Shown here one piece after another: positions 16,020-64,000 of a stretch of DNA of 64,000 nt. Made by a program: the position numbers and the translations under genes. This stretch comes from a virus. The DNA lies in the IMG/VR virus record IMGVR_UViG_3300024339_000015; one strand, written 5' to 3'. How positions within the stretch are numbered: the stretch's first letter is position 1; each line of letters opens with the position of its first letter. The notes under the pieces are model-generated. The model made no database searches and was not told where the DNA came from. It worked only from the letters and a program-made list of their open reading frames with translations.

Positions 16020-16133
16020 AAAGAAATAATAAAGGACCACATGGACTATACCGGATACTTTGAAGACCATGGTATTGCTTTAAGAGAGAATATGTGGGAA
16101 CATAACGATAAAAAAATAAAAGTAGTAGTATGA
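15930..16133 (+). CDS. Hypothetical protein
   Basis: ORF track; ATGA overlaps at both ends. Confidence 0.65.
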   Translation: MKINALEMGTKKSSQVIPVINDLIKEIEDLKEIIKDHMDYTGYFEDHGIALRENMWEHNDKKIKVVV

Positions 16134-17032
16134 GCCAATTCACAAGATATCAACACATAGAAAAGTATCAAACTATGGAAGTAGAAGGAATAGAGCTTGG
16201 TAAAGTCTACGTCTTTCCAAAAATAGATGGGACCAACGCATCTGTTTGGTTAGATGACGATGACATCACCATCAAAGCTGGCTCTCGTAATAGAGAATTA
16301 ACCTTTGATAATGATAATGCTGGGTTTTTCAAAGCAATTAGAAGTGACTATGATAATATTCATCACTATTTATACGAGCATCCAACACACATATTATACG
16401 GCGAATGGTTAGTCAAACACACATTACAAACATATGAAGAAAATGCTTGGCGCAAGTTTTATGTATTTGATGTTATGGTAAATGACATGTACGTAAATTA
16501 CGATACTTACAAAGAATGGTTGGAAGAGTTTAGTATAGACTACATTCCTGCTATTTGTTCTATTGCAAACGGGGCTTCAGATAAATTCCACTACCAACTT
16601 GAAAACTCTAACTACTTAGTTAAGGACGGAGAAGGTTTGGGTGAAGGCGTGGTACTAAAGAATTATGACTTTGTAAATAAGTTTGGACGAACAACATGGG
16701 CTAAAATCGTTAGATCAGACTTTAAAGCAAGTTTCCATAAAATAATGGGGCACCCTGAAATGAAGGGCAAAGACACCACAGAAATAAAGATAGCTGAACA
16801 GTATATTACGTCACATTTAGTTGAAAAAGAGTTTGCTAAAATAGTGAATAAAAACGACGGGTGGTCTAGTAAATTCATACCTCAGCTACTCGAAACAGTT
16901 TTTTATAGTTTGATTACTGAAGAAATGAATGATATATTAAAGAAGTATAAGAATCCAACTATTAATTTTGGAACTCTTAGAAATTTTGTTATACACCAAA
17001 TCAAACTAAAAAAACATGAGATATTTAGTTAA
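16130..17032 (+). CDS. RNA ligase (Rnl2-like nucleotidyltransferase)
   Basis: Motif I PKIDGTN, LYGEW, FYVFDV, EGVVLKN, AKIV. Confidence 0.85.
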   Translation: MSQFTRYQHIEKYQTMEVEGIELGKVYVFPKIDGTNASVWLDDDDITIKAGSRNRELTFDNDNAGFFKAIRSDYDNIHHYLYEHPTHILYGEWLVKHTLQTYEENAWRKFYVFDVMVNDMYVNYDTYKEWLEEFSIDYIPAICSIANGASDKFHYQLENSNYLVKDGEGLGEGVVLKNYDFVNKFGRTTWAKIVRSDFKASFHKIMGHPEMKGKDTTEIKIAEQYITSHLVEKEFAKIVNKNDGWSSKFIPQLLETVFYSLITEEMNDILKKYKNPTINFGTLRNFVIHQIKLKKHEIFS

Positions 17033-20711: not shown

Positions 20712-21103
20712 ATATGGAAAGCAAAGAAAATAAAATAGGTCATTTTGATTGTGCTTGTCACGATCGAGACCATATGATTAAAGTGTCCCATTTTAATTGG
20801 GGACCTGGTGATGAACATAATATACAAGAAATAGATTTTAATTTTGTTATACATCATACTTGTTGGGAAGCTAATAAAAATGGATATACTACTGAAAGTA
20901 GAATTCAAGAAAAGGCTAGAGATTTTCTTAACTTCTTTAGGCGCATTTGGTGGAGAATACGTAAATCGGCAGAAATACTTACTACTGGCAGTATAAAATT
21001 AGAAGGAAATTGGTCCGCTACAGAAGAAAGCTTTGCAGGTCTTAGAAAATGGATGAATAAAACCGCTAAGATAATTAAGCAAGAAAATGGGAGAGTATTG
21101 TAA
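20702..21103 (+). CDS. Hypothetical protein
   Basis: ORF track. Confidence 0.65.
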   Translation: MGLNMESKENKIGHFDCACHDRDHMIKVSHFNWGPGDEHNIQEIDFNFVIHHTCWEANKNGYTTESRIQEKARDFLNFFRRIWWRIRKSAEILTTGSIKLEGNWSATEESFAGLRKWMNKTAKIIKQENGRVL

Positions 21104-21903
21104 TGAGCGATGAAAAACAAACATGCTGTCAACCAGAAGAATCCTGTAAAGATGATATAAACGATGTGATGAGTTTAGAGGATAAAAAGAAAATGGAGCT
21201 TGACCTGTACTTATCTACATGCCAAGCAGCGGACGTAATACCAGACGACTTTGTTGTAAAAGCAGTAAAAGAATACTTACCGAGAAGCTATGATGGCCAC
21301 ACACACCACCATGCTAAACGAGAGTTAGAAATGGGCGAGTGGTTAAAAAAAGGCGAAGACACGCTGTATAACGGCATGATCGGAGAAGCAGTATTAGAAT
21401 TAATATCTGTTTTTGCAGGCCAAGGTCACTCCGGTATGAGTGCCGGAGTCGTAACAAGTTTATTTACAAAACTGTCAAAGCATGAGCCATTAGGCCCCCT
21501 TACGGGCGAAGACAACGAGTGGGTTTCTGATGTAGACAAATACAGTAAGGAGTTTGCAGAAGAAAATGGATATGGATACCAAAACAAACGTGAGTCTGCA
21601 GTATTTAAAAACAGTAAAGATGGTACGGCATACTATCTATACGCAATAGTGTTTAGAGAAGAGGATGGATCGACTTTTACAGGCAACAGTATTGAGATGC
21701 CTGACAGCAGCATGCTTACAAGCAGGCAGTACATAAAAGGATTTCCTTTTACACCTAAAACATTTTACATTGATGTTGTGTCGAAACGATACAAAGATAG
21801 AGATGAAAAACTTGAAGATATAAACGGGGACTGGTGGAAACACTGGATTAAGGACGAAAGCCAGTTGAAGGAAGTTTGGGAATACTACGATAAATATAAA
21901 TAA
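21103..21903 (+). CDS. Phage hypothetical protein (QGHSGMSA motif)
   Basis: ORF track; TAATG coupling. Confidence 0.75.
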   Translation: MSDEKQTCCQPEESCKDDINDVMSLEDKKKMELDLYLSTCQAADVIPDDFVVKAVKEYLPRSYDGHTHHHAKRELEMGEWLKKGEDTLYNGMIGEAVLELISVFAGQGHSGMSAGVVTSLFTKLSKHEPLGPLTGEDNEWVSDVDKYSKEFAEENGYGYQNKRESAVFKNSKDGTAYYLYAIVFREEDGSTFTGNSIEMPDSSMLTSRQYIKGFPFTPKTFYIDVVSKRYKDRDEKLEDINGDWWKHWIKDESQLKEVWEYYDKYK

Positions 21904-35281: not shown

Positions 35282-35706
35282 GGGCCCTAACTAGTATCGA
35301 TTGGCAGAACTTACTATATGAAGCGCAGTCATGAAGAAAACATGTAAAAAATCAACCGTCAATTTAATTGGCAATTATAGTTACGCAGCTGCAGCTTAAT
35401 TGACTGTAGCCATCGTCCTTTGACTCCGATAAAGGAAAAGCGATGACATTATCGGGAAGAACCTACTACTTGTAGTGAAAAAAGGTTAGAAGTAATACGC
35501 AATAAACCAGTAACCTTGAGAAACACGGTGAAAGCCCAGCTGTTAGATTGTGTAAAGTATCGTTGGTTACCATCGAGCTACGACGATTAAATTTGAGAAA
35601 AGAACAGACATGGTAGACTTTGTCAGGGGGAAAGAAACTGACTAAACTGTAAATGACTTTTATAGAAGGCTGAGCAAGACGCGGGGGCAGTACCCGTGGG
35701 GTCCAC
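35282..35706 (+). ncRNA. ssrA: tmRNA, tag (A)GNYSYAAAA
   Basis: Acceptor GGGCCCT/GGGGTCC with G3:U70 and A discriminator; T-arm GCGGG-GGCAGTA-CCCGT; tag frame 35370-35399 ending GCA GCT GCA GCT TAA; ACTAAACTGTA near the 3' end. Confidence 0.92.
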
Positions 35707-35734
35707 AAAATTAATATAAAACCAATTAGGCGTA

Positions 35735-36313
35735 ATGATAAAGATAAAAAGTTCTTTAAAAAAGGATGTAGTGTTTGATTGTATAGATTATAATATAAAC
35801 ATCGACAGTAGAACGATGTATTATAGTGATGAAATAGATCTATACTCTCCAGCATGGATAAAAAGTAGGATAGAAGCTATATACGCCTTAACAGGAGATA
35901 ACAAGTCTCCCGTAACATTGGAGATAACTTCTTATGGTGGGGACGTGTACGGCATGTTTGGTGCTATAGATGTCATAAAAAATGCACCCACAAAAGTAAA
36001 TACAGTGGGTAGGGGGGCAATAATGTCTGCAGCCACCTGGATACTAGCATCAGGGACGGGAGATAGGATATTAGCTCCACATACCACAGTAATGATACAT
36101 GAGATATCATCACTTATAAATGGAACTAGTAAAGACATAATAGCAGAAGCATCTCATTTAAAAAGCTTACAAACAAAGATGTATAATACGTTTGAAGCGT
36201 ATTCAAATAAATCAAGCACATACTGGAAAAAGATGTCGAAAGTAAATTTTTATCTTACACCTGAGAAATGCTTAGATTTAGGAATCATTAATAAAATAGA
36301 AGGAAGTAAATAA
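35735..36313 (+). CDS. clpP: Second, divergent ClpP-family protease
   Basis: ITSYGGDV, IMSAA (catalytic Ser), VMIHE (His), FYLTPEKCLDLGII. Confidence 0.88.
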   Translation: MIKIKSSLKKDVVFDCIDYNINIDSRTMYYSDEIDLYSPAWIKSRIEAIYALTGDNKSPVTLEITSYGGDVYGMFGAIDVIKNAPTKVNTVGRGAIMSAATWILASGTGDRILAPHTTVMIHEISSLINGTSKDIIAEASHLKSLQTKMYNTFEAYSNKSSTYWKKMSKVNFYLTPEKCLDLGIINKIEGSK

Positions 36314-57305: not shown

Positions 57306-57654
57306 TGCTTTCTAAAATTGGGTCAGTAGTGCCTATATGTTTATCAAGAAACTTTTTATAAATTGGGTTCATTGTGAGAGCTATTGCCATAGCAGGAGCT
57401 ATCTTTAAAGCTTTTAATCCTATACCGCTGTAATGTTTTTTAAAAAAGTTTTTTCTAACTGAATTGCCCACATTCCTTGCTCCCTCTACCTGTTTATTTG
57501 TGATAGATGCATCTAGAGGGTAAAGAATCGGAAGACTTGATATACCAGCTAAGCCTCCAGCTACTAAACTTTTTACTGGGTCGGGCAGGCTAAATCTTTT
57601 TTCTTTTTTGCCTTCGGCATACTTTACTAACATAAAAGAATGGTCAACGTTCAC
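57298..57654 (-). CDS. Protein resembling one mitochondrial-carrier (SLC25) repeat
   Basis: LVAGGLAGISSLPILYPLD...YSG...LKIAPAMAI...YKKFL. Confidence 0.55.
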   Translation of the reverse strand: MNVDHSFMLVKYAEGKKEKRFSLPDPVKSLVAGGLAGISSLPILYPLDASITNKQVEGARNVGNSVRKNFFKKHYSGIGLKALKIAPAMAIALTMNPIYKKFLDKHIGTTDPILESNE

Positions 57655-58649
57655 TATTCATCCTCCAGAGCAGCGTCCATAAAACACCCTCTTGCCACGG
57701 CTGTTAAAGGCTCCTCTACCAGCTTTATCTCACTAATATTAATAGGAAATTCCTTTTGATTAAATTGAGCTTTAAATACTTCGATAAACCCTTTAATCAT
57801 AGACGTACCTCCACCTATCACTATTGGCACTGCCTCTGGAAAATGAGGCATAGCTTCGTTTATTTCAAATTGATTAGCAATATTATCTAAGAGGTATTTA
57901 ATTAATACCTGATAATAACTTCTAATTGCGTGTACCTCTCGTTCATTGTCTTCATCATAAATTGTATTATCTGATAAGTCTATTTTATTAGATTCTTTTA
58001 TAAATTGAGCTTTAGCTAGAGGTATTCCAGTATCTAAAGAGACGTGTTGATCTATAAAATCTCCACCCCTACTAACACTAAAAGTTAGTGCAACCAATCC
58101 TTGGTACATTATAGCGATATTAGCCATTCCTGCGCCCATTGATATTGATATCCCCGTTAGATTATTATTATTATCAGATAGTCCAGCATATCCTAAAGCT
58201 TCTGCTTCTTTTATAGACCTAGCTTTGTACCCTATACTTTCAATCATGGTTGATAAAACATCTTCGTGATAGTCCACTAACGTTTCTTTATCTATTGGCT
58301 TAGATGGTACACAATAAACACATACTTCTCCGTCTTCAGAAGGTTTCCCCAGTAGTGAGGAAATAATTTCCCGTAAAACCGGTAAGGCGTCCCTTTCAGA
58401 TGGGTTTAATAGTCCCTTAGACATAGGCCTCTTTAAATCCTTATTACCAAATATTTGTGCATAGTCATAAGCGCTCTTGCCAATAACATGCAATCTTTTA
58501 TTAATCTCAACAAACGGCACATTTAATCGTTTTAGTGACTTAATAGTAGTCGGGCTTTTATCTATTGTTAAAAAAGCATTTCGTTGTATTTTTACACCGT
58601 CCTCTGATGCAGCTACGTAATTCCCTGTCCCACAATCTAATCCTTTCAT
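57654..58649 (-). CDS. Actin-fold ATPase (MreB/ParM/FtsA-like)
   Basis: GLDCGT phosphate-1, SMGAG phosphate-2, IVIGGGTS adenosine motif. Confidence 0.85.
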   Translation of the reverse strand: MKGLDCGTGNYVAASEDGVKIQRNAFLTIDKSPTTIKSLKRLNVPFVEINKRLHVIGKSAYDYAQIFGNKDLKRPMSKGLLNPSERDALPVLREIISSLLGKPSEDGEVCVYCVPSKPIDKETLVDYHEDVLSTMIESIGYKARSIKEAEALGYAGLSDNNNNLTGISISMGAGMANIAIMYQGLVALTFSVSRGGDFIDQHVSLDTGIPLAKAQFIKESNKIDLSDNTIYDEDNEREVHAIRSYYQVLIKYLLDNIANQFEINEAMPHFPEAVPIVIGGGTSMIKGFIEVFKAQFNQKEFPINISEIKLVEEPLTAVARGCFMDAALEDE

Positions 58650-58652
58650 AAA

Positions 58653-59204
58653 TTATTTACCTTTCATTTTTTTTAAATCTTTTAAAGCCTTTTTTATGTC
58701 TACCCTACTTTTTTCAAGTTTAATATCCATACTACTAGTAGTGGCCTTTTCTATGTAAGGGTTTGACCCTTTCTTTATGTCTATATGTTTTGGTACAGAA
58801 TACTTACGTACATCAACTTCCTTAGAAGTACTCGATGTTTTTTTGTCACTACTTACCACACTATTTACTACTATCGGAGAATTAGTACTTTTTTTAAACC
58901 AAAATGCTGCTATGAAAATTGATAGCAATACTAATAAAATCCTGAATTCTACTACGTAATAATATATAGGGTTTTGCACTGTTTCTATTGGAATAAGTAT
59001 TTCATCCCCAGGAAATATTTTATCGGGATTAATTCCTAAGGATTCTTTGTTTAAATGGTAAACACTACTTCAAGAAACTCCGTAAATTTCAGATATTTTA
59101 CTAACAGATTCACCGCTTCTTACTGTGTGCTGTTTAGCTCTAATATAATCAGTACCAAACAAAAACGACGTTACCAGCAGTAAGTATACTAATAACCTTT
59201 TCAT
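58653..59204 (-). CDS. Signal peptide + LysM + TM protein, 183 aa via TGA 59070-59072
   Basis: Manually translated: HTVRSGESVSKISEIYGVS*SSVYHLNKESLGINPDKIFPGDEILIP, in frame with 58653..58979. Confidence 0.88.
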
Positions 59205-59206
59205 TT

Positions 59207-60280
59207 TTATAGTCTGGAAGTGATTTCTTCTCTAATAGGCTTTGGCAAAGAAGCTAATATGTCTAAACCCTCTTCACCCCGTAACTCAGGTATAATATCA
59301 TTTCCAACTAGTGGAGTAAGTTCTGAATCAGGAATACTCCTTAGCTGTTCATGGGTAACTGTAGTACCGTCGACATCAATAGAAGCAACTTTAGGTAAGT
59401 CTAGAGTGGCCATTAACGGGTCCTCTATACCCTTACCATAAGTACCCGTTAGGGATGCTTCTTTGTCTAACTCATACATAGTTAATGCAGAAACAATAGC
59501 ACCTTTACTGTCAGCTTCCTTTAGTAAATTATCATACTTAGAACTTAATTCATCCTCATTATCTTTTAAATAGCTCTTCCTAATTTGAACATGGTTATAG
59601 AATTCAGTATTAAATATTTCTGAGTCTAAACTAGCATACTTTTCAACTGCAGTCTTATTTAGGAATACCTCGTTTAAACTAGCTGCTTTCTGTAAATTAG
59701 ATATAAACTCTAATTTCTTATCAACAGGCATTTTATAGTGATTTTTCTCGAAGTAAGATGCTGCTTTTTTTATGTTAATTGGTGTGTCAATAGGGTATCT
59801 TTCTTCCTTCTCCCATGCGTATAGGGAAGGAGACACTTCTTGGTTACCAACTTTATTTACAAAGTCAGCTTCATTTATATCTCTAATGTCAAAAACATTG
59901 TCTATATAATCTTCTGATGCGTACTTAGAAAGTCCGTCTGGAGTTTGTAATTTATGTGAAGCAGCTGCTCTTGTTAAGTTAGCTGCTGCAACTTTAATAA
60001 CTTCTTCTGGTAATGTATCTAAAGATTCAGATAGAAAAGCCATGTTCAGCTCTACAAGCTCCGGAGTGTACATAGCAAATTTATTTAATTTACCTGTTCT
60101 GGGATGCCATAAAACTAAAGCGAAGTCTCGTTCGTTTTTTGTCTGCTGCTCTTCATAGCTTGGAATATGCGCTGTTTTCACGCTATCTGACAATCCTTCA
60201 ACTATGCTTGCAAGTTTTTCTATCTCATTTGCCATGATATAGTCAACAACATCCAAGTTCATACTTGCAATTTTATTCAT
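59207..60280 (-). CDS. Head/scaffold-like structural protein rich in K-x-A motifs
   Basis: NKIAS, EKLAS, VKTA, IKVAA, SKYAS, NKTA, EKYAS, PKVAS. Confidence 0.7.
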   Translation of the reverse strand: MNKIASMNLDVVDYIMANEIEKLASIVEGLSDSVKTAHIPSYEEQQTKNERDFALVLWHPRTGKLNKFAMYTPELVELNMAFLSESLDTLPEEVIKVAAANLTRAAASHKLQTPDGLSKYASEDYIDNVFDIRDINEADFVNKVGNQEVSPSLYAWEKEERYPIDTPINIKKAASYFEKNHYKMPVDKKLEFISNLQKAASLNEVFLNKTAVEKYASLDSEIFNTEFYNHVQIRKSYLKDNEDELSSKYDNLLKEADSKGAIVSALTMYELDKEASLTGTYGKGIEDPLMATLDLPKVASIDVDGTTVTHEQLRSIPDSELTPLVGNDIIPELRGEEGLDILASLPKPIREEITSRL

Positions 60281-60283
60281 TTG

Positions 60284-60898
60284 TTAGCCCTCGTTTTTTA
60301 TTTTATTTATGTAATCGTAAGCAACATACCCAGGACATGCAGGCTTCCCGAAGTCAGCGTGACCATATATGTCTGCTTTAGTTATAGACAATTTATCCAT
60401 ATTAAGCAAGTGTTCTATCAATTTTTTTAGAGACGAGAGCTGTGCTTGAGAAGGTCCACTAGATGTTCCTTTGTGACCCTCGCCGTCAAAGTCACCAACC
60501 AACATTATTCCTATACTTGATGTATTTTGTCCCTTAGCTTGCCATACGGTATGACTTAATTGATTACAGTGGTATACATCCCCTTCTTTTGATATCCCAT
60601 AATGATAACAAAAATGGGGACACCCGTTAGGAGAGATATGATTAGGTTGGATATGGTAGTTATTGACTTGCTCTACTGTGGCATCACCAAGTTCTTGGTG
60701 CACAATTATTTTATTTATAGATGCTAGCGATCTTTTACTTCATTTTCTTGACTCGTGCCATTGTAACTCACTAATTACATTATCAATAACAAATGGTTTT
60801 TTTATTGCCTCTTCTGAAACTTTTTTATCTGGAGCTGGTATTGTCCTCTTTAGTAAGATTTTAATAAATTCTCAAACGTATGTTAGTATTATTTTCAT
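60284..60898 (-). CDS. Endolysin, type-2 N-acetylmuramoyl-L-alanine amidase, 204 aa via TGA 60872-60874 and 60740-60742
   Basis: KIIVHQ, YHYGI, SIGIMLVGDF, YGHADFGKPACPG; the first zinc-ligand strand is only complete with the upstream TGA-containing N-terminus. Confidence 0.9.
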
Positions 60899-60911
60899 GT
60901 TTTAATTTAGG

Positions 60912-61178
60912 TTAGTTTTGGGCAGGCCTGGTAGGAATTGAACCCACGCACTCCGTTTTGGACGCGGAGGGGGACAGTTTTGAAGACTGCTCGTCACCCA
61001 GCTGACGCCTCAGGCCTATTTTATTTTTTATATAGTCCTGTGACGCATTATTAGCATCATCAATATTATTGTATGCATTATCTAGAATTTTGGTTTGTTG
61101 TAAACAATGGTCGTCTATTTGTACAGAAAAATTGTCTGTACCATAAATAGCGTCTATATGTATTTCGAGTCTCTTCAT
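60912..61178 (-). CDS. ORF whose 3' third is the UCA tRNA
   Basis: TAATG-coupled start; no stop before the tRNA. Confidence 0.45.
   Translation of the reverse strand: MKRLEIHIDAIYGTDNFSVQIDDHCLQQTKILDNAYNNIDDANNASQDYIKNKIGLRRQLGDEQSSKLSPSASKTECVGSIPTRPAQN
60919..61018 (-). tRNA. tRNA with UCA anticodon (reads UGA), long variable arm, Sec-like/suppressor
   Basis: AGGCCTG/CAGGCCT acceptor (8 bp with U:G, then C-CCA), D-stem CGTCA/TGACG, GCAGT-CTTCAAA-ACTGT, CTCCG/CGGAG extra arm, GTGGG-TTCAATT-CCTAC. Confidence 0.9.
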
Positions 61179-61501
61179 TATTTATCCAATGTCTTAGTTA
61201 TTCCAGCACCTAGTATGGTGTATAAAAGTTTTTTAAACCATAGTTGCTCCCAGAAGGGGACTTGTAGTTTGTCTACCTCCTGGTAGTTAATAATTATAGA
61301 GTCCTGGATAGCTATTAAACTATCCTTATTAACACACTCCTGTAGCTTGACTAAAAGAGTGTCAAACTGTGTTGGTGTAAATACTATACTACCTACATCA
61401 ACTAAGGTAGGTTTAGTTAGGAGCTCTTGACAACCCACTAAACTAAAGCTTAGAAAGGAGATCGTTAAAGTGCTTAACTTTATCTTCTGGAACAATGTCA
61501 T
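61178..61501 (-). CDS. Lipoprotein, spanin-like
   Basis: Lipobox LVGC, C-terminal hydrophobic stretch, overlaps the upstream TM/coiled-coil gene. Confidence 0.65.
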   Translation of the reverse strand: MTLFQKIKLSTLTISFLSFSLVGCQELLTKPTLVDVGSIVFTPTQFDTLLVKLQECVNKDSLIAIQDSIIINYQEVDKLQVPFWEQLWFKKLLYTILGAGITKTLDK

Positions 61502-61706
61502 TTATTTCTTTCTCAATAGATTTTTTTTTATTTTTATTTTGCAGCCTGTTTCTTTTTTCTAAAAGGCGTTTTATCTTATTTCTTTTAATTTTAATCTCCG
61601 CTGAATCGTTAGATAATACTTTAGACCCAGCGTAGATTAATACTACATAAGAAATTATGTGTAACAGTTCCCTTATAAGTGAAGCTAGGTTACTTAGCTT
61701 CTTCAT
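61443..61706 (-). CDS. Membrane-anchored coiled-coil protein (i-spanin-like)
   Basis: N-terminal TM segment plus basic helical tail; lysis-cassette position. Confidence 0.55.
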   Translation of the reverse strand: MKKLSNLASLIRELLHIISYVVLIYAGSKVLSNDSAEIKIKRNKIKRLLEKRNRLQNKNKKKSIEKEINDIVPEDKVKHFNDLLSKL

Positions 61707-61914
61707 CTGTCCCTACTAATTCCCGCAAACTTTCTATTTTGCCTCTTGTAAAGTCATGTACTTCTTTTTCTTGTGCAATAGCTTGACGTATTTCGTTCTC
61801 TTGTTCACGTAATTTCTGTATATTGTCGTTGTATTCTTGCACCTTTTGCACACGAGCATTATTTTCTTCTTCTAACTTATGTATCTTTTCTTCCAGCATT
61901 TTGGTATCTTTCAT
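61690..61914 (-). CDS. Coiled-coil protein
   Basis: ORF track. Confidence 0.7.
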   Translation of the reverse strand: MKDTKMLEEKIHKLEEENNARVQKVQEYNDNIQKLREQENEIRQAIAQEKEVHDFTRGKIESLRELVGTDEEAK

Positions 61915-62052
61915 ATTATTGTAGTTTGGTTAAGTTTGAAAGTGTTATATTATTTAATATATTAAGTTTGATTATGAAAAGCAATGGTTATTTATGGTAT
62001 TTTTCTTTTATATTTTATAGCTGTTTCCCACCTAGACATTATGCCCTAAATA

Positions 62053-63999
62053 CTACCCACAATGGTACGTACAACCAACAAACGCTACCATGTACACTAC
62101 TCCATCATACTCCACCTCTTCTAGTTTATACTTAGTATCATCATCAAAATTACAGTCCATTGTTATTTTAGCAACAGTATAGTTGTGTAGTACATCATCT
62201 GATTGTTTCATGCCTATACCAGGAATAGGTGATGAAGTTATATAGTCCCCATTTTCTAGATTTCCAGAATAATTTGATATCCAAACAGCACCCTCCCCTA
62301 AGGAGTTTATTTTTAAGTACTCATTTAGCATAGAGTTTCCTTCACTGTCTACAAGTAGATTTTTATCATCGTCAAATTTTCTGGTGTTAGTAATGCCAGA
62401 TATAACGCCGTAAACCGACTTATCCATTTTTGTGGAAGATACCTCAACATTCGTTCATGTGTCCATTATATCAATAGAAGAGATACCCGTATTCATTGAC
62501 CGATCTGTATAACCAGGACTAGAAGTGACAATTTTACCTATATAATTCTCTATGTTATCCTTGTAGTAGTTAATTGTATTATCAGATGGCCATGATTTAT
62601 GGGTACCAGTAAAAAATAAACTGGTCCAAAATACTCCCCCAGTATCATCGGTTAGGAACTCATCGTTAGCTGCAGTTGAATTGTTAGAATCGTATAAGAA
62701 CGATCTCATTCTAACAGTACCGTTGACATCAAGCTGACTAGTTGGAGCGTCAACATTTATACCTACGTTCCCACCAGAAATATTTAGTTTATTACCATTC
62801 TCAAGTTTAAAATTTATAAAAGACCCTGGAGTACCTCACCCTATATAACACCCCCTAGTATCAGAACTATCTCTTACTTCAAAGTACCCATAGTGGTCGG
62901 AGTCGGAAGTATATTTAGATGTAATAGCTCCATAATTACATCTTATTTTTCCCCCACTTACATCAAATAGCTCCCCAGGGTTGGTAGTGCCAACACCGAC
63001 ATTTCCATCATACTTTATAGTCAGTCTGTCAAATAAGTCCTTATCATAAAGGTTATTAACGGCAAATCTAAGGTCAGTTTTGTCATAACTGGTATTCATA
63101 TTATCAGTGTGCCTTACAGCCCTAATTGCAGCCCCTATCTGGTCAGTGTCCTCGGATGGATTCATAGTATTTGATTTAAAAGCGATCCCAGCGAATGCGT
63201 TTTCTGTTGCATTATCGTTGTGTATAACTAGCTCAAAGTCACTAAATATGTTATTGTTGGATGTAGTTGTGCCGTCATCTCCCCTAATTTCCATAACCCC
63301 AGCAGCAATTGTCCCTACGCCACCTGCACTTAATTTATTAGTAATTTTGACATCACCACCCGTTACATATAATTTATATGAACCATTTAGATTATCATCT
63401 CCGATAGTTACTTGTCCTGCTGTAATTCCTTTTTGAAAATATGGGGGGAAAGAATCGTAGGATGACGCGGCTAAAAGTCTAAAATCAAAAGTAGATTTTA
63501 ATCAAAAGTACCTTGCGCCAGAGGTATGCCTTCCCAAGTTGGTGTAGGAAACGCCGTTTAGTTCAACATCGTAGCTTCAAAAAGCGTCTCCATCCAAATT
63601 ATTAGATGTAGCCCCTGTCAGGTCATCAGCGTCTCCTCCAAAATTGTATTTTCCAAGCGAAAAATCACTGCTAGTAGTACCAAAACCTAACGAAAGAGTG
63701 TTGGAGTTATAAGTTGAGTTAGTTGCATATGATTCTAATGTTGTGGAACTAACACCTACAGATCGTTTATAATAAAAAGTAGAGTTGGCTCCTTCTATGT
63801 ATACTTGGTGTCCTCCTCTTAGTCCTGGAGTAATTATCATTCCTATCGGATAGTCCAGCGATGGGGTCTCCATCCGAACCATACCAGCACTCTCCCCGCC
63901 TCGAGCTCCATTTAAAATTAAAGCATAGTAATTTCCGGAACCGGAAGTCCAATCTGATACATATCTCACGAAATATTTTCCAAAATCAGCATGTGTCTC
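62053..63999 (-). CDS. Tail fibre-like protein, partial, one frame with four TGA (63577, 63502, 62836, 62455)
   Basis: Four track ORFs join in frame; GNVGVGTTNP/GNVGIN repeats; C-terminal NSLGEGAVW...NGDYITSS...VAKITMDC domain; TAG stop. Confidence 0.88.
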
Positions 64000-64000
64000 G

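Follow-up and report, generated by a model that had tools for sequence, protein, structure and literature searches.

Reassignment of a stop codon as a clock for the late and lytic genes of phages is a current hypothesis for which mechanistic detail is sparse. Borges et al. described phages in which TGA is recoded to Trp, found that lysis genes are preferentially recoded, and presented recoding as a lysis timer (bioRxiv 10.1101/2021.08.26.457843). They report suppressor tRNAs in only ~35% of the TGA-recoded phages and voice the suspicion that odd tRNAs were missed. Kienbeck et al. (2024) found theta ribozymes, which are minimal ribozymes of the hepatitis delta virus (HDV) type, at the 3' ends of phage suppressor tRNAs and proposed them as code-switch triggers; of the suppressors concerned, 99.7% read UAG, and none was found with code 4 (PMC10879173). 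The preprint of Borges et al. also describes the "code change module" of the gut phage Jade, a set of tRNA, tryptophanyl-tRNA synthetase (TrpRS), and release factor 1 (RF1) upstream of the lysis cassette. Here we analyzed a stretch of 64,000 nucleotides (nt), called the window below, from the IMG/VR virus record IMGVR_UViG_3300024339_000015. The locus of interest lies on its minus strand at 60,284-61,706, where a tRNA with the anticodon UCA is joined to a small protein gene and precedes an amidase gene with two in-frame TGA codons. An earlier interpretation made from the letters alone (the sequence-only reading) had placed a suppressor tRNA inside a lysis cassette and suggested that its excision from a polycistronic RNA would couple RNA processing to lysis timing. 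All elements of that cassette, their order and coordinates, and the TGA triplets at amidase codons 9 and 53 were found at the minus-strand positions that it had given. The most valuable new fact from the present analysis is that the small gene and the tRNA form a conserved unit.

The window derives from a marine phage, and this phage is widespread, the stretch being present in 20 seawater metagenome runs from 16 studies and in six metatranscriptome runs. A blastn search of 58000-64000 against GenBank phages gave no match, and searching IMG/VR with the amidase alone and with the exact tRNA string returned nothing; relatives, designated by L numbers, were gathered via protein look-ups, a 357-amino-acid anchor gene, and degenerate tRNA patterns. 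Six further lineages, namely L001/L002 (89% amidase identity), L009, L012, L013, L014 (a 210-kb contig rated 100% complete), and L030 (a 73-kb contig), share the order spanin-like gene, small open reading frame (ORF), tRNA, amidase, and 357-amino-acid gene, and the tRNA thus occupies the same slot in all of them. In the non-recoded collinear relatives L003-L006, in contrast, the spanin-like gene leads directly to the amidase across a 41-nt gap with neither small ORF nor tRNA, every Trp codon of the amidase is TGG, and the gene terminates with TGA. L011 likewise is without tRNA and small ORF, encodes Trp by TGG, and terminates the gene with TGA, and its upstream gene is different. Because the unit is present in recoded and absent from non-recoded relatives, the small ORF and the tRNA together act like an insert that accompanies recoding.

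Four distant members (L033, L034/35, L036, and L038) were picked by the small protein alone, and a UCA tRNA lay 0-440 nt downstream in all of these loci with downstream DNA. In L034/35 the tRNA begins 2 nt before the end of the ORF, L033 is similarly arranged, and in L038 one extra gene separates the small ORF from the tRNA. The small gene, and not the endolysin, is the most constant neighbor of the tRNA that we found. The L014 amidase is free of TGA despite the tRNA in the same slot, the tRNA of L034 heads the cassette with three genes, including an HNH endonuclease, preceding a two-TGA amidase, and the tRNAs of L038 and L015 have unrelated, non-lysis genes around them. Because of these exceptions, the adjacency of tRNA and amidase is a feature of the window's clade and not a requirement, and the idea that the tRNA is tied to a UGA-locked endolysin does not hold in general. 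The complete L014 contig has this tRNA once and is without a gene for TrpRS or a release factor; neither gene was found among the neighbors of the window tRNA.

The small gene was originally seen as an 88-codon ORF (61178-60912, minus strand) whose last 34 codons are the tRNA gene on the same strand. Its conserved core comprises 54 codons (61017-61178), the ATG overlapping the stop of the upstream gene (TAATG), and is followed by a non-conserved read-through tail (60912-61016), in which the tRNA gene is translated as far as a TAA (60912-60914). Over the first 33 codons, comparison with L001 revealed nine synonymous and two replacement changes, and the ORF aligns over ~50 residues across six lineages. 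AlphaFold predicted a three-strand-plus-helix (beta-beta-beta-alpha) domain with a predicted local distance difference test score (pLDDT) of 90.2, which ends at residue 53, where the tRNA begins. A profile search of 1.8 billion representative proteins retrieved 28 clusters of the small protein, and hmmsearch located it in 11 independent loci, none of them non-recoded or of the selenocysteine (Sec) type. The small ORF is a genuine conserved gene of ~54 amino acids, as the sequence-only reading had supposed for the overlapping frame. Pfam and PHROGs gave no match for this protein, Foldseek against PDB and BFVD returned nothing at E <= 0.001, and among AFDB clusters there was fold-level likeness only to DUF2188, DUF1508, and AP2 (E ~0.06-0.1, TM-score 0.78-0.83). 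As a separate observation, at window position 61031, within the small ORF and 14 nt upstream of the tRNA, all four metatranscriptome runs have C where the window has T, a strain variant.

The tRNA itself (minus strand, 60923-61017 from A1 to G73) has its anticodon at 60981-60983 and a long variable arm at 60951-60969, the loop of which is at 60956-60964. ARAGORN placed it at 60919-61018 and labeled it tRNA-SeC, while the boundaries used here were set by a covariance model, R1, that we built from the window, L001, L009, L012, L013, L014, L015, and L030. The general Rfam tRNA model scored it below cut-off, and the Rfam tRNA-Sec family (RF01852) gave 38.5 bits against a gathering score of 47. On R1 the window tRNA scored 113.5 bits and the class as a whole 100-116 bits, whereas true Sec-like tRNAs from phage contigs reached at most 50 bits. 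Among eight distinct tRNA sequences, pairing was found in 97.7% of cells and 15 of the 27 pairs change on both sides; none of 500 shuffles matched this covariation, and slid controls did not come close either. All five pairs of the variable-arm stem, which encloses a 9-nt loop, covary. The tRNA is genuine, beyond chance.

With the relatives included, the acceptor stem has 7 bp, and A1:U72 (7/8), G3:C70 (8/8), and G73 (8/8) agree with the reviewed identity set of bacterial tRNA-Trp (PMC9976931). The canonical bacterial tRNA-Trp form differs in two respects: here the variable arm is long, and the anticodon is UCA rather than CCA. In the window, L001, L009, L012, L013, L030, and L038, the loop of the variable arm carries UCCAAA, which equals the tRNA-Trp anticodon loop; in L034 it reads CCAAAA. 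Since this motif had been used to fetch L014 and L015, those two were excluded as evidence for it; it played no part in fetching L030, L038, the window, L001, L009, L012, and L013. Through this Trp-like loop the host TrpRS may continue to charge the tRNA although its true anticodon is UCA, or the loop may be the relic of a duplicated anticodon arm. After G73 the window reads CCC, meaning that CCA is not encoded there; CCA is encoded in L001, L009, L014, and L038 only. Two of the distant tRNAs are interrupted. L036 (280-565) has a ~180-nt insert in the anticodon loop that resembles a group I intron (Rfam Intron_gpI, 30 bits, below cut-off), and L033 (2608-2965) is broken in the variable-arm loop, just before CCAAA, by a ~270-nt insert. 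Splicing of these interrupted tRNAs could be an additional control on the supply of the decoder. A tmRNA candidate at window 35282-35735, which would matter for non-stop messages, was rejected, ARAGORN finding none there and Rfam tmRNA giving 10.9 bits against a cut-off of 47.

Downstream of the tRNA, a 24-nt spacer (60899-60922; 16-41 nt in relatives) serves at once as tRNA 3' trailer and amidase leader. The amidase gene (60284-60898, minus strand) encodes a 204-amino-acid Amidase_2 endolysin candidate that matched Pfam PF01510 (E 1.4e-16) and the PHROG endolysin and amidase families, and its TGA triplets are at codons 9 (60872-60874) and 53 (60740-60742). An alignment of 16 phage-like and bacterial homologs has Trp at residue 53 throughout, as part of the motif W-H-x-x-R-x-W-S. 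At three conserved Trp columns, TGA and TGG replace each other among the window, L001, L009, L013, and L008, with TGA at one of these columns in the window, two in L009, and all three in L013 and L008; the non-recoded L003 and L011 have TGG there and use TGA as the amidase terminator. Such exchange at conserved Trp columns indicates that TGA is most probably read as Trp in the recoded genes. Under the standard code, translation from the amidase ATG halts after 8 residues. Initiation at an alternative GTG (60703) would bypass both TGA codons, but I38, W53, and R56, which are invariant in the amidase homologs, all lie upstream of it; an amidase started there would therefore be non-functional, and the enzyme needs a UGA decoder, in agreement with the sequence-only reading. 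The N-terminus of the amidase also deserves mention. Residues 1-20 (window 60838-60898) form a short amphipathic helix followed by basic residues and often proline; this helix occurs in all phage versions, including L003, L009, L012, L013, L014, L030, and L034, whereas bacterial homologs are without it, and it may be a membrane-binding segment. The TGA at codon 9 falls within this region.

The two strands of the window treat TGA differently. Nine plus-strand genes have TGA only within their last few codons, and there it is therefore a stop. Minus-strand genes, on the other hand, contain ~13 internal TGAs in eight to nine genes, compared with 66 TGG codons. Gating by TGA affects ~ten minus-strand genes and is not specific to the amidase: ~20% of minus-strand Trp codons are TGA, and the amidase proportion of 2/4 is not a significant enrichment (binomial estimate, p ~0.18), even though the amidase is the most heavily gated among the short genes. 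The large plus-strand genes encode DNA and RNA ligases, AAA/MoxR ATPases, a VWA protein, a glycosyltransferase, and a Tad3 homolog, whereas the large minus-strand genes belong to no Pfam family and are presumably virion genes. A practical consequence is that standard-code gene callers split the amidase, a LysM protein gene, and other genes, and overlook the decoder.

We next consider the junction between small gene and tRNA. The small-ORF stop varies in place. L014 has a separate TAA that precedes the tRNA by 4 nt, L036 has its stop at positions 7-9 of the tRNA, and L009 and L012 reach theirs 15 nt and 65 nt, respectively, into the tRNA; in the window, L001, and L030 it is found 11-20 nt beyond the tRNA. 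In L033 and L034 it is a UAG made of U(-1), A1, and G2; a one-base shift of frame lets the ribosome read past this UAG in the window, L001, L009, and L030, and in L012 and L013 a different frame enters the tRNA. A C-terminal tail that is recognizably translated tRNA was seen in 9 of 25 inspected family sequences. Because tail sequence and stop vary by lineage, the tRNA-encoded tail is tolerated, incidental read-through with no conserved peptide. The ORF overlapped by the tRNA is thus a conserved gene in its core, and the third encoded by the tRNA shows no conservation at the protein level. The conserved feature is a coding region that runs up to the tRNA, leaving a margin of 0-4 nt. In 11/11 sequences the base ahead of the tRNA is U(-1), which fits the preference of RNase P for U at -1. 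Inspection of the sequences indicates that a cut between U(-1) and A1 would strip the small-gene message of its stop in all lineages except L014, and that removal of the tRNA would, as had been proposed, delete the stop of the small ORF and leave a leader of at most 24 nt before the amidase ATG.

In three runs, contigs from RNA libraries extend over the tRNA into the flanking DNA on either side, which is compatible with a polycistronic precursor; in one run there is a gap at 60923-60966, for which processing, an assembly break, and DNA carry-over are not distinguishable from contigs. A scan for sigma-70 promoters and terminators found 20 sites when 22.4 were expected, giving no signal above chance, and the best promoter-like site (61104-61077, inside the small ORF) is without a -10 box in L001.

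Taking these results together, we consider it likely that the window represents a marine phage in which TGA has two meanings and whose single UGA decoder is contained in the small-gene/tRNA unit and made within the very block of genes that needs it. This reading builds on the structure and conservation of the tRNA, on TGA as a Trp codon, on the co-occurrence of tRNA and small gene with recoding, and on gene order. In the clade of the window, the unit would have been inserted between the spanin-like gene and the amidase, and a long-armed tRNA whose acceptor identity is of the Trp type would act as the sole decoder. It would most likely be transcribed from the same strand, in the same polycistronic RNA, as the genes that depend on it. 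RNase P could release it at the invariant U(-1)/A1 junction, 3' trimming and CCA addition by host enzymes would follow, and the host TrpRS would charge the product. As the tRNA accumulates, ribosomes would be able to pass TGA in ~ten genes, the amidase included, and timing may be affected.

Several points weigh against this reading. The RNA contigs show no ends, strand, or processing and may include DNA carry-over. The sigma-70 consensus used in the promoter scan may not be that of the host. In L015 the tRNA type is present and the small gene absent within the 11.5 kb examined. Because most of its genes are without a Pfam family, the label "late" for the minus-strand block is only inferred. 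The check for TrpRS and release-factor genes covered 20 ORFs of the window and one complete relative. Finally, insertion of Trp at TGA is a prediction from codon comparison.

Other explanations of the locus have to be weighed against these data. The tRNA might be of the Sec or Ser type, in which case either Sec or Ser would be inserted at TGA or the tRNA would have no bearing on the amidase. The ARAGORN label and the fact that tRNA-Sec is the best Rfam family point in this direction, and G73 and the long extra arm belong to the identity features for SerRS as well (PMC9976931). However, the Rfam score is below the gathering threshold, the acceptor has 7 bp with A1:U72 and not the 8/5 Sec form, and true Sec-like phage tRNAs score poorly on the class model and have no UCCAAA loop; moreover, TGA stands at invariant Trp columns, where it swaps with TGG, and not at Sec/Cys positions, selenocysteine insertion sequence (SECIS) elements not having been searched for. 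On the grounds of the sub-threshold Rfam score, the acceptor length, and the Trp columns we rejected this reading, which we regard as scarcely credible. It is also very unlikely that the overlapping ORF is an annotation artefact, a chance frame over a GC-rich tRNA in an intergenic gap. Although the gene callers for L001 and L002 did not call it and its tail is unconserved as protein, with varying frame and stop, the excess of synonymous changes in the core relative to L001 (nine against two), the six-lineage alignment, the confidently predicted fold (pLDDT 90), the 28 clusters, and the 11 independent hmmsearch loci led us to reject a spurious frame.

Excision of the tRNA could by itself be the lysis timer, as the sequence-only reading envisaged: one cut would destroy the small-ORF message, create the 5' end of the amidase message, and supply the decoder. 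Several features suit such a device. A U(-1)/A1 cut removes the small-ORF stop in all lineages but L014, the stop is assembled from U(-1), A1, and G2 where the frame permits (L033 and L034), the amidase ATG is only 16-41 nt from the tRNA, the amidase would be blocked at codon 9 without a decoder, and the theta ribozymes at suppressor tRNA 3' ends are a conceptual precedent (PMC10879173). Yet L014 keeps the tRNA slot with a TGA-free amidase and a small ORF that has its own stop, three genes separate tRNA and amidase in L034, the tRNA lies outside lysis genes in L038 and L015, and the RNA contigs run across the tRNA with no ends seen. In addition, the genes for the transmembrane protein and the lipoprotein carry no TGA, and in canonical holin-endolysin lysis it is the membrane proteins that set the timing. 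We therefore doubt that excision is the timer. We are equally hesitant about a bolder possibility, that small gene and tRNA together are a bifunctional, minimal code-change kit of marine recoded phages without their own TrpRS or release factor. With the stop of the gene assembled from U(-1), A1, and G2 of the tRNA or lost entirely, each RNA would then yield either the finished small protein when left uncut or the tRNA when cleaved by RNase P, and a built-in ratio or delay would result. The small protein, with a fold like that of AP2 and DUF1508, which is often nucleic-acid-binding, would act on the suppressor, its precursor, or UGA termination, and the Trp-anticodon-like extra arm would sustain charging by the host TrpRS despite the changed anticodon.

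The remaining genes of the block are all on the minus strand. A 74-amino-acid coiled-coil gene (61690-61914) is the first of the conserved block, contains no TGA, and has same-position homologs in L001, L003, L012, and L030. It is followed by a gene for an 87-amino-acid protein with one N-terminal transmembrane helix and a very basic coiled-coil tail (61443-61706), which also contains no TGA and has homologs in the same four relatives; from these features the protein is a holin or i-spanin candidate. A 107-amino-acid exported protein with the lipobox LVGC and a short C-terminal hydrophobic segment (61178-61501), a candidate spanin-like protein to judge from its sequence, is encoded with a 59-nt overlap with the 87-amino-acid gene. 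The window and L001 have the lipobox and the counterparts in L003, L012, and L030 do not; lipoprotein status is therefore lineage-specific. Pfam and PHROG gave no match for either the 87- or the 107-amino-acid protein. With these transmembrane and lipobox proteins upstream, the locus has the peptidoglycan hydrolase beside small membrane proteins that characterizes a lysis cassette. On the other side of the amidase are the 357-amino-acid conserved gene used as the synteny anchor (59207-60280; weak similarity to DUF6582) and a gene for a 183-amino-acid protein with LysM and a transmembrane segment (58653-59204), which has TGA at codon 45; its homolog in L030 likewise has one TGA. In L034, the HNH endonuclease gene (1970-2689) lies inside the lysis cassette between a holin-like gene with two transmembrane segments and the amidase. 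The actin-like Volactin gene is intact in the window (57654-58649) and split by an intein in the non-recoded L003 (7743-9683) and L004 (2671-4611), where Pfam gave Volactin, Intein_splicing, and Volactin in succession. Elsewhere on the plus strand, 21103-21903 encodes the Tad3 homolog, an inhibitor of type I Thoeris (E 4e-31), and 16130-17032 the RNA ligase (E 4e-19), which might repair cleaved tRNAs.

This locus provides an example of an odd suppressor tRNA, one that fails the Rfam tRNA and tRNA-Sec cut-offs and is mislabeled SeC by ARAGORN, and it offers the small protein, whose gene is physically fused to the tRNA, as a concrete candidate second component in switching the code. Relatives that are recoded and have the unit, together with relatives that are not recoded and lack it, form a natural comparison set with otherwise collinear lysis cassettes, and the order of events in recoding is therefore testable. 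The overall interpretation in the sequence-only reading is partly supported; lysis timing by recoding, with a suppressor tRNA near the lysis cassette, had already been published (bioRxiv 10.1101/2021.08.26.457843), and it is the tRNA-plus-small-gene unit that appears to be undescribed. The passages of Borges et al. and Kienbeck et al. consulted here mention no protein gene fused to a tRNA and no long-armed Trp suppressor, and a text search that combined TrpRS with a variable arm mimicking an anticodon, with coverage short of the whole literature, gave nothing relevant.

The theta-ribozyme system resembles this locus in the proposal that processing of RNA at a suppressor tRNA contributes to the code switch by which recoded lysis and structural genes are turned on (PMC10879173). 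It differs in that the ribozymes cut the 3' end of the tRNA, whereas here only 24 nt precede the next ATG and host enzymes would do the processing. Between 60800 and 61150, Rfam found no ribozyme and, apart from the tRNA, no match with an E-value below 3.7. Release of tRNAs from co-transcripts with mRNA by RNase P and 3' nucleases is familiar from the E. coli thrU-tyrU-glyT-thrT-tufB operon and the phage T4 tRNA cluster; the tRNAs of that operon and cluster are not known to overlap a coding frame or to be the decoder that the downstream gene needs. With bacterial tRNA-Sec the present tRNA shares the UCA anticodon, the long variable arm, G73, and a length of ~95 nt, a combination that is also that of allo-tRNAs. 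It is set apart from both by the 7-bp acceptor, A1:U72, the sub-cut-off Rfam score, the Trp codon context, and the copy of the Trp anticodon loop. The Jade module is similar in having in-frame TGA in lysis and presumed late genes with other genes in the standard code, and a phage tRNA(UCA) beside lysis genes, for which a delay of late and lytic proteins was proposed. Jade is, however, a gut phage, whereas the phage studied here is marine and has its tRNA inside the cassette among TGA-as-Trp genes. In place of the TrpRS and RF1 that complete the Jade module, both absent from the complete relative L014, the companion here is a small protein of unknown family that abuts the tRNA, and the tRNA itself is long-armed.

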